Assembly (NCBI GenBank): GCA_947302975.1
Contig: CAMYXA010000002.1
Location: 26,627-90,626 of the forward strand
Source: an uncultured Candidatus Saccharibacteria bacterium
GTDB taxonomy: Bacteria > Patescibacteriota > Saccharimonadia > Saccharimonadales > Saccharimonadaceae
Direction: 5' to 3'
DNA: 64,000 bases
Within the stretch, counting starts at the first letter, position 1; each line of letters opens with the position of its first letter. The notes beneath the pieces were generated by a model. The model was not told where the DNA came from. It made no database searches and saw only the letters and a program-made list of their open reading frames with translations. The position numbers and the translations under genes are program-made. Positions 14,367 through 15,456 of this stretch are shown here, piece by piece.

Positions 14367-14549
14367 TCAACCCCCGTATAGTGCTTCCTTGTAGAATTCT
14401 ACAATGGCCGTAGGCGATTTGCGAGGATAGCTCTTGTCGAGCTCTGAAAGTATGATTTTTTCACGTTCAGAGTCCGGCAAATGGCAATAGTCGCTAATTT
14501 CTAAAACGGCACAAATTTTAGCCGTGGGGTTGCTTGATGTTTCCTGCAT
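14367..14549 (-). CDS. 60-aa hypothetical protein
   Basis: AAAAGGAGGTGGATTT-ATG with upstream TGTTATAAT; lies within the tracked 94-aa ORF. Confidence 0.5.
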   Translation of the reverse strand: MQETSSNPTAKICAVLEISDYCHLPDSEREKIILSELDKSYPRKSPTAIVEFYKEALYGG

Positions 14550-14649
14550 AAATCCACCTCCTTTTATGCATAGAATTCGCACTACTAGTTTCATTATAAC
14601 ACTACTCTCGAGATTTTTAAAGACTTTTCGGGCGTGATAAAATATAAAC

Positions 14650-15456
14650 ATGTTAATTGATTCGCATTGCCATCTTCACGATCGTGAATTTTTCTCCGAA
14701 GAAGCCGCCGAAGCTGCGCTTTCTCACGCGCGCGAAAACGGTGTCGAGAAAATCATTTGCATCGGCACCGATCCAAAAGATTCGCTTGCCGCTCGTGACT
14801 TCTCCCTCTCGCATGAAAATGTTTTCTGGACCTACGGAATCCACCCATCGGAATGGAGGAGCGCAAGTGGCGTTTCGCAGTCGCAACTCGGAGCCTGCTG
14901 GCGAGAATTAGGAGCCGAGCCCCGTAAAGACGGGCGCGAGGACTCCGGCGACAAGAAATGCCACCGCGTATCTCCAGTTGCGATTGGTGAAGTCGGGCTA
15001 GATTATCATTTCGGAAGCGAAGACAAAGACGAGCAAATCAAACTCTTTAACGAAATGTTGCAACTCGCAAAAGACAACGACCTTCCTCTCAGTTTTCACG
15101 TTCGCGAAGCCTTTGACGATTTCTTTGGTGTCGTCGCAAATTTCCCAGAAGTCCGTGGCGTCATTCATAGTTTCACCGACAGCAAAAAGACCCTAAATAA
15201 AATCCTAAACAACACCGATTTCTACGTTGGCGTAAATGGCCTCGCCACCTACAGCACCCTCCCGCTTCCACCGCTCGACCGCATTCTTCTCGAAACCGAC
15301 GCCCCATTCTTAGCCCCGGTTCCATTCCGTGGCCAAACCAATGAGCCGGCTTATATTAAAAACATCGCCGAATGGCTAGCAGGGAAGCTCGAAATGAGCG
15401 CCGAGGAAATCGCCGAAAAAACCACCGAAAACGTCACGAAACTATTCCACATATAG
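14650..15456 (+). CDS. tatD: TatD-family DNase with an in-frame insertion
   Basis: IDSHCHL, GIHP, AIGEVGLDY, HVRE, HSF, LETDAPFL motifs. Confidence 0.93.
   Translation: MLIDSHCHLHDREFFSEEAAEAALSHARENGVEKIICIGTDPKDSLAARDFSLSHENVFWTYGIHPSEWRSASGVSQSQLGACWRELGAEPRKDGREDSGDKKCHRVSPVAIGEVGLDYHFGSEDKDEQIKLFNEMLQLAKDNDLPLSFHVREAFDDFFGVVANFPEVRGVIHSFTDSKKTLNKILNNTDFYVGVNGLATYSTLPLPPLDRILLETDAPFLAPVPFRGQTNEPAYIKNIAEWLAGKLEMSAEEIAEKTTENVTKLFHI
14854..14976. repeat. Nested palindromic element in frame within tatD
   Basis: Stems 14867-14876/14955-14964, 14880-14884/14948-14952, 14889-14893/14943-14947, 14921-14925/14930-14934. Confidence 0.65.

Follow-up and report, generated by a model that had tools for sequence, protein, structure and literature searches.

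A fold-back DNA repeat with a conserved Y-shaped core, probably selfish, lies in frame in tatD and other genes of Candidatus Nanosyncoccaceae

Introduction

The closest described counterparts of the DNA element reported here are the Rickettsia palindromic elements (RPEs), RPE-1 to RPE-10 (Ogata et al., 2000, 2002, as summarised in PMC10969869), each family of which is described there as encoding a conserved peptide. By the same account, RPEs are short hairpin-forming repeats (about 100-150 bp) of a reduced genome, a large share of which lie in frame in unrelated housekeeping genes and leave these unbroken, and they have no transposase of their own (PMC10969869). The element found in tatD of a Candidatus Saccharibacteria bacterium is alike in all these respects. 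In contrast to the conserved peptide, single frame and single orientation given for RPEs (PMC10969869), the copies described here occur in both orientations and are read in five frames. What the Saccharibacteria copies have in common is limited to the central ~80-90 nt, the stem being private to each; their orientation follows GC skew; and the host phylum is another one, with a 24-nt core pattern found only in Saccharibacteria among the named matches listed. Since there is no conserved peptide and no Rickettsia record stands among the named matches listed for the core pattern, we do not file the repeat as an RPE member.

The definition of a MITE calls for conserved terminal inverted repeats, target-site duplications and a related IS (PMC10969869). 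Like the bacterial MITEs found in genes (ERIC, BOX, Correia/NEMIS), the present element is small, non-autonomous, structured, multi-copy and sometimes intragenic (PMC10969869). Here, however, the termini are the variable part, with outer stems that differ in every copy, and no parent IS was found (Y1_Tnp and TnpB were searched for, and the neighbours of intergenic copies are ordinary). Assignment to the MITEs thus fails on the conserved termini.

IS200/IS605 elements, REP/RAYT systems and integron attC sites are all recognised as a folded single DNA strand, and their orientation is linked to replication direction. Conserved hairpins stand at their ends or form the whole site, and in attC structure is more conserved than sequence. 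Copy orientation in the family described below is linked to strand as in IS200/IS605 and REP/RAYT, but the apex is conserved and the base variable, unlike in any of the three. Assignment to IS200/REP fails on co-occurrence with a Y1 (HUH) transposase.

Long near-perfect inverted repeats of which both arms are translated, as is presumed for those reported here, occur as coding palindromes in the mitochondria of Nematomorpha (PMC6649704), and template switching in replication can create and perfect hairpin stems (bioRxiv 10.1101/2023.04.19.537475). Those cases are eukaryotic or organellar and, unlike the present one, are not dispersed families with a conserved asymmetric core.

Saccharibacteria have some of the smallest and most gene-dense bacterial genomes and are usually described as repeat-poor, a picture that the fold-back family contradicts. 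The family sits in genes for aminoacyl-tRNA synthetases, topoisomerase, TatD and similar proteins, and alters protein length between sister species. Together with Rickettsia, it would provide two independent cases in which selfish DNA adds peptide segments to essential proteins. The first-pass annotation knew of no such element described for the CPR, and we likewise found no publication on one in Saccharibacteria or Patescibacteria in a literature coverage that is incomplete.

Our analysis started from a window of 64,000 nt (contig CAMYXA010000002.1 of assembly GCA_947302975.1), to which plain positions refer. The assembly is called G000 here; it comprises 673 kb in 18 contigs and is 91% complete. 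We consider, with a probability of roughly 60% and from sequence data, that the tatD segment belongs to a family of selfish, non-autonomous fold-back DNA repeats, the surviving copies of which lie in frame and are presumably read through.

Results and Discussion

A lengthened linker in TatD

The tatD gene encodes a product of 268 aa, and its reading frame continues uninterrupted across the element. Residues 3-267 match Pfam TatD_DNase (PF01026) with an E-value of 5.8e-60, and the protein matches E. coli YcfH in the PDB (1yix) at 1e-36. The alignment with 1yix is interrupted where the query passes from residue 69 to 109 and the chain from 71 to 89, and this break makes the position of the insert within TatD clear.

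The linker between GIHP and VAIGE has 43 residues (44 when counted up to AIGE, as in the first-pass annotation, which rightly called it longer than usual). The corresponding linker has 24-25 residues in 11 genomes from other families of the same order, and 14-19 residues in seven "empty" orthologues of the same genus. The insert would fill the linker between beta3 and beta4, where other families have the 25-residue segment. An example of a predicted insert-encoded peptide is ELGAEPRKDGREDSGDK; the peptide quoted at first pass for tatD was confirmed in sequence. Judged from their open frames, surviving copies in general would be read through and add ~30-45 residues to the host proteins.

Fold and parts of the tatD copy

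The fold-back element of tatD and its parts are listed in Table 1, together with the other copies in the same genome.

Table 1. Coordinates of the tatD element, its parts, and the copies found in genome G000 (plain positions refer to the window, C-prefixed ones to contigs of G000)
Feature	Position	Strand	Evidence or remark
tatD (TatD/YcfH-family metal-dependent hydrolase), host gene	14650..15456	+	ORF list; Pfam PF01026; PDB YcfH 1yix
Whole fold-back element as paired, 148 nt, in frame, stop-free	14842..14989	+	minimum-energy fold, DNA parameters, codon-level controls
Conserved family unit: inner P1 + P2 + P3	14871..14961	+	covariance model R1 match, G000:C2:41497-41587, 84.4 bits, E 4e-19
P1 5' arm (private stem); outermost ~17 nt are host codons His-Pro-Ser-Glu-Trp-Arg	14842..14884	+	folds
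P2 hairpin CTCGGAG-CC TGCT GG-CGAGAAT, G/A-rich internal loop	14887..14907	+	helices 2 and 3 90-100% paired, compensatory changes
P3 hairpin	14911..14946	+	near-invariant core GAGCCCCGTAAAGACGGGCGCGAG at 14917-14940; invariant columns in 27 copies
P1 3' arm (private stem); outermost part is host codons Ser-Pro-Val-Ala-Ile-Gly	14948..14989	+	fold
Copy in tatD	C2:41497-41587 (window 14871-14961)	sense	covariance model
Copy in pheT	C4:53005-53095	sense	covariance model
Copy in UPF0020/RMKL-like methyltransferase gene	C9:25825-25915	sense	covariance model
Copy in cysS	C2:20054-20140	antisense	covariance model
Copy in tsaD	C18:1-79, contig end	antisense	covariance model
Copy in spacer upstream of acyl-CoA ligase gene	C3:69900-69993	intergenic	covariance model

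Fold energy was compared with dinucleotide shuffles and with two codon-level controls. The whole paired element folds as RNA at -78.1 kcal/mol, against a shuffle mean of -51.7 (z -6.93; none of 200 shuffles was as stable), and with DNA parameters at -41.3 (z -5.88). The native 147 nt (-74.3) were also far more stable than sequences recoded synonymously with genome codon usage for the same peptide (-49.0 +/- 5.3, minimum -64.4) and than permutations of the element's own synonymous codons (-51.5 +/- 3.6), with z-values against the codon-level controls from -4.7 to -6.3. All the nested pairings listed in the first-pass annotation recur in the minimum-energy fold. The hairpin it had placed at 14854-14976 therefore stands, but not in that extent, as the full stem is longer. 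The GC-rich composition described there was also found again (0.61-0.65 in the element versus ~0.45 in the genome).

The outermost pairing of P1 in this gene is CAC CCA TCG GAA TGG AGG against TCT CCA GTT GCG ATT GGT G, which are the codons for conserved TatD residues on both sides. These flanking host codons pair at -20.3 kcal/mol in the tatD of G000, compared with -4.0 to -14.6 for the same positions in 29 orthologues. The 43-residue linker can be divided into ~30 residues of core plus 13, a remainder close to the empty-linker length. Recruitment of tatD host codons into P1 fits these data, and the linker arithmetic is compatible with growth of the stem into the insertion site, in this single case.

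A dispersed family with a Y-shaped core and private stems

The first-pass annotation had proposed a repeat family, and the segment is indeed not a single copy. BLAST of 151 nt against the G000 assembly gave two more partial copies, and covariance model R1 brings the total in this 0.67-Mb genome to six, with 149 distinct copies across the related loci examined. The copies in tatD and pheT read GAEPR(K/N)DGREDSG, and the copy of the same DNA in the methyltransferase gene reads GASPVTTGASD; what recurs is therefore the nucleotide sequence and not the peptide.

About 30 copies from relatives were folded and share a three-way junction of P1, P2 and P3. Each consists of a conserved Y-shaped core of ~80-90 nt closed by a long P1 stem of private sequence. 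P2 often has the form TTCGGAG-stem-CGAGAA with UACG, AACG or TGCT loops, and P3 carries GAGCCCCGTNNNGACGGGCGCGAG, which hardly varies; 15 columns are the same in all of 27 copies. From a sequence-only MAFFT alignment of these 27 copies, RNAalifold recovered only the invariant P3 tip; a hand-set structure on seven well-aligned copies, with model-based realignment, was used instead, and R1 was built from these seven. Double changes occur in 16 of the 31 pairs in the seven copies, a number reached by 0 of 500 shuffles, and 89.9% of cells are paired in the hand-set structure versus 34-45% when the partner is slid.

The P1 arms, with a median of 23 bp (range 7-51), show almost perfect pairing. Identity between genomes (95-100%) is confined to a core of ~70-82 nt and the outer stems are unrelated; inter-copy identity ends ~5-10 nt inside the model boundaries. 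Within one genome, L008 and L022 form a pair of copies that share 99% identity along a 114-nt stretch taking in P1, and their flanks are unrelated; the stem can therefore travel with the element. The conserved unit is a Y-shaped core rather than a simple palindrome.

Turnover at tatD and between sites

The tatD linker was surveyed in 20 orthologues of the genus clade. Seven linkers, of 14-19 aa, are short and lack a hairpin, another three, of 23, 24 and 26 aa, show no structure and give no model match, four contain the element in sense and four in antisense orientation, and two (L039 and L051) hold other long inserts outside model R1. Filled and empty, as well as sense and antisense, states are interleaved on the TatD tree, where L036 (antisense) is sister to L040 (empty) and L035 (sense) to L075 (antisense). 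The tatD linker is therefore a recurrent landing or retention site.

Cores do not track host orthology. Of 87 copies with a same-host partner in another genome, only 13 had their best core match within the same host family; for the other 74 it lay in another gene or a spacer. The tatD core of G000 itself is 87% identical to the pheT core of the same genome versus 72% to the best copy at a tatD site elsewhere. The element is therefore probably copied or homogenised within genomes.

The unmatched inserts at this site are themselves long. That of L039 (1315-1509; G206) is a 195-nt hairpin of -87.6 kcal/mol, and that of L051 (1975-2181; G214) comprises 207 nt and is less structured (-63.2). In L043 (1978-2283; G215), an antisense R1-type copy adjoins a second, unmatched hairpin, with 306 nt and -153.8 in all. 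The unmatched inserts could be a second fold-back family or decayed cores.

Distribution and partner enzymes

In the Nanosyncoccaceae sample, 25 of 151 genomes, from 15 of 95 genera, contain between 1 and 22 copies by the covariance model. Of 151 Patescibacteria genomes sampled across 130 genera, two match, G000 and a second member of its genus, and none of the other 149 does. The exact core pattern was found in at least 116 stretches of a collection of 185,579 species; the named records among the matches listed are all MAGs of Candidatus Saccharibacteria or Candidatus Nanosyncoccus, with ruminant gut as the main source and some from human and termite. No copies were found in the viral contigs searched. 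On the TatD tree, a tatD locus labelled Candidatus Nanosyncoccus / Nanosyncoccaceae nests inside the genus of the window. As far as sampled, the repeat is confined to Candidatus Nanosyncoccaceae (Saccharibacteria).

Neither a Y1 (IS200/RAYT-type) transposase nor TnpB was found in the 91% complete G000. Y1_Tnp is present in 6 of 25 element-positive versus 22 of 126 element-negative family genomes, and is absent from the three genomes with the highest copy numbers (G144, G096 and G042, with 12-22 copies). Y1 transposase and TnpB were rejected as partners, being missing in G000 and, for Y1, showing no co-occurrence across the family. The neighbours of intergenic copies encode ordinary proteins (RadA, GH97, aldolase, ClpC, sortase, L10, ParA), and no target-site duplication is evident in L008/L022, the sole clearly recent pair.

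Independently of the fold-back element, with which they show no association, 28 of the 151 Nanosyncoccaceae genomes contain ORFs of ~200-215 aa that match only positions ~38-119 of the Y1 profile and may be RAYT-like. They number 1-4 per genome; examples are G041:C1:54853-55083 and G073:C2:49019-49246.

Orientation and strand

Of 144 copies, 117 have the + strand of the model on the strand that is locally C-rich (62 of 78 sense, 28 of 33 antisense and 27 of 33 intergenic ones). When each host cluster is counted once, 35 conform to this rule and 5 do not (p = 1.4e-6). In clusters with both orientations, sense copies are found where the coding strand is C-rich (18 versus 9) and antisense copies where it is G-rich (19 versus 4; Fisher p = 6e-4). 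Orientation therefore tracks a regional property of the strand and not transcription. In G000 itself, the six copies are split 3:3 relative to skew.

In a genome of two contigs (G075), skew and gene direction both switch near dnaA and the leading strand is G-rich, which is the usual case. On its dnaA contig, five of six copies have the + strand on the lagging-strand sequence. On contig C12 of G144, all eight copies are in + orientation to the right of dnaA, where skew is ~0.

Isolated mismatches within P1, read on the + strand, are G:T in 43 and A:C in 17 cases (p = 0.001), and the bias persists in antisense copies (15 versus 3), which points to folding of the element's own strand and not of the host mRNA. 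Only this strict isolated-mismatch count was used, as the thermodynamic G:U count is biased and a loose symmetric count is swamped by unpaired flanks. The skew-linked orientation points to a single-stranded DNA mechanism.

The contigs of G000 have a peculiarity of their own. GC skew is uniform along whole contigs, at about -0.15 on C2 (which holds the window) and +0.18 on C5, and on several contigs (C2, C4, C10 and C12, contrasted with C5) most long ORFs lie on the C-rich strand (303 versus 184 overall). With a G-rich leading strand and genes co-oriented with replication, such an arrangement would be unusual.

A possible mode of spread, and a host-kept site as alternative

Under the selfish-repeat reading, the element would spread or be copied within genomes at the DNA level. 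As the genomes are almost all coding sequence, the only survivors would be copies that keep the frame, are free of stops and sit in tolerant loops. Orientation follows skew and, on one strand, G:T mismatches outnumber A:C ones, both of which suggest that the element is inserted or selected as one DNA strand folded into a hairpin during replication. P1 could be kept paired, and be extended into host codons, by template switching or by repair templated on the hairpin, and recombination between the P1 arms could flip the core. A single-stranded hairpin intermediate at the replication fork would fit the link of orientation to skew, the wobble bias of one strand, stems that are private yet perfect, and the inversions seen between sister species. 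A conserved apex on a private stem made partly of host codons, together with skew-linked orientation, offers a tractable case in which to follow how hairpin DNA is created, maintained and moved in replication.

A bolder proposal, which we regard as possible but speculative, is that the family represents a new type of prokaryotic repeat: a core of folded single-stranded DNA that is copied between sites and homogenised within genomes by host replication and repair, or by an unrecognised enzyme, builds its stem from the insertion site and is oriented by the fork. If true, it would amount to a structure-driven mobile element without a transposase signature inside essential genes of ultra-small genomes.

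As a counterpoint to recent spread, the near identity of cores across genera (95-100%) could reflect selection for function. Of the alternatives, the one that survives best, unlikely as we judge it, is a DNA site kept by the host for a replication-oriented chromosomal function, such as a hairpin for the fork, recombination or segregation, and tolerated inside genes. The near-invariant core would suit such a site, as would an orientation tied to GC skew independently of gene direction, the small number of copies per genome (1-22) and the repeated occupation of the same host sites. A function of this kind is hard to reconcile with a patchy distribution that leaves out most genomes and genera of the family and, outside the genus of the window, all 149 genomes of the phylum sample. 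Within one genus the copy number per genome ranges between 1 and 22, and the tatD site is empty in many cases. Copies show no apparent relation to landmarks of the chromosome, and the even split of the G000 copies relative to skew also argues against such a function.

Coding context, and readings at the RNA or protein level

The 149 distinct copies come from 143 loci; long ORFs enclose 80 of them in sense and 34 in antisense orientation, and the other 35, which no such ORF spans, lie mostly in spacers or at gene ends. About three quarters (114) are thus genic, and all of these are open in the host frame. Their hosts form 44 protein clusters, including IleS, ArgS, TatD, MnmA, Obg, P-type ATPase, TruB, TopA and QueA. 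In genomes that are ~90% coding, random insertion with purifying selection would also give three quarters genic copies, so these numbers are no evidence of a preference for genes.

Five of the six frames are used (S0 45, S1 31, A0 16, A1 12 and A2 5), and the sense frame in which the P3 loop is read as TAA is essentially unused. Peptides from different frames are unrelated (EPRNDGRE, SPVTTGA, SLAPVVTGL, RPSLRGS). The use of five frames indicates that the DNA is conserved and the peptide is not. The RPE-like character proposed at first pass holds for multi-copy repeats lying in frame; the simple palindrome gives way to a Y-shaped core, and the conserved peptide, an RPE feature, is absent. Nor is the TatD segment conserved at the protein level, the insert being missing from many TatDs of the same genus and from all those of other families.

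The argS genes of two ruminant-gut MAGs (L087:2322-3846 and L097:4683-6122) hold three copies each, in two frames, and are still open.

A structured RNA acting within the mRNA, be it an excised intron-like element, a self-cleaving or protein-binding motif, or a cis-regulator of translation or decay, is an explanation that we consider improbable, even more so than a host-kept DNA site. It would account well for the three-way junction with covariation in all helices, for the G/A-rich internal loops and UACG-type tetraloops, for a + strand that folds ~7 kcal/mol better than its complement, and for the surplus of sense over antisense copies. Yet 30% of the genic copies are antisense, with a wobble bias that follows the element strand and not the mRNA, and orientation goes with skew and not with transcription. 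Every genic copy (114 of 114) is open in the host frame, the frame with the stop in the loop is avoided, and no visibly split gene was seen among the 35 unspanned copies as judged from their coordinate lists. Rfam 15 gave no match over positions 14500-15300 at E-values up to 10, save two chance hits elsewhere in tatD.

That the insert is an adaptive, lineage-specific TatD loop selected for its peptide is very improbable: it is in frame and replaces the linker at a roughly constant position, but the same DNA gives unrelated peptides in five frames, is inverted or absent in sister species, and is conserved in its nucleotide core and not in its amino acids.

Assembly effects and neighbouring hairpins

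We give practically no credence to a chance hairpin or an assembly artefact, for which the tsaD copy at a contig end (C18:1-79), where the repeat disturbs assembly, might speak, in view of z-values of -6.9 against shuffles and -4.7 to -6.3 against codon-level controls and of the same structure in MAGs from many independent studies and animal hosts.

Contig C18 of G000 starts inside this antisense copy. The assembly is thus interrupted by the repeat, and MAGs probably represent fewer copies than the organisms contain. Besides breaking assemblies at contig ends, the family will confuse orthologue alignments and gene calling in the phylum.

Near the intergenic copy on C3, a small separate hairpin, GTCCGCTCCTTACGAGGAGCGAAAG, with a TTACGA loop like that of many P2 hairpins, lies at G000:C3:69850-69875, ~25 nt before the long stem of the copy. 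The stem itself ends in GGGGTTTTGCT, which has a terminator-like appearance.
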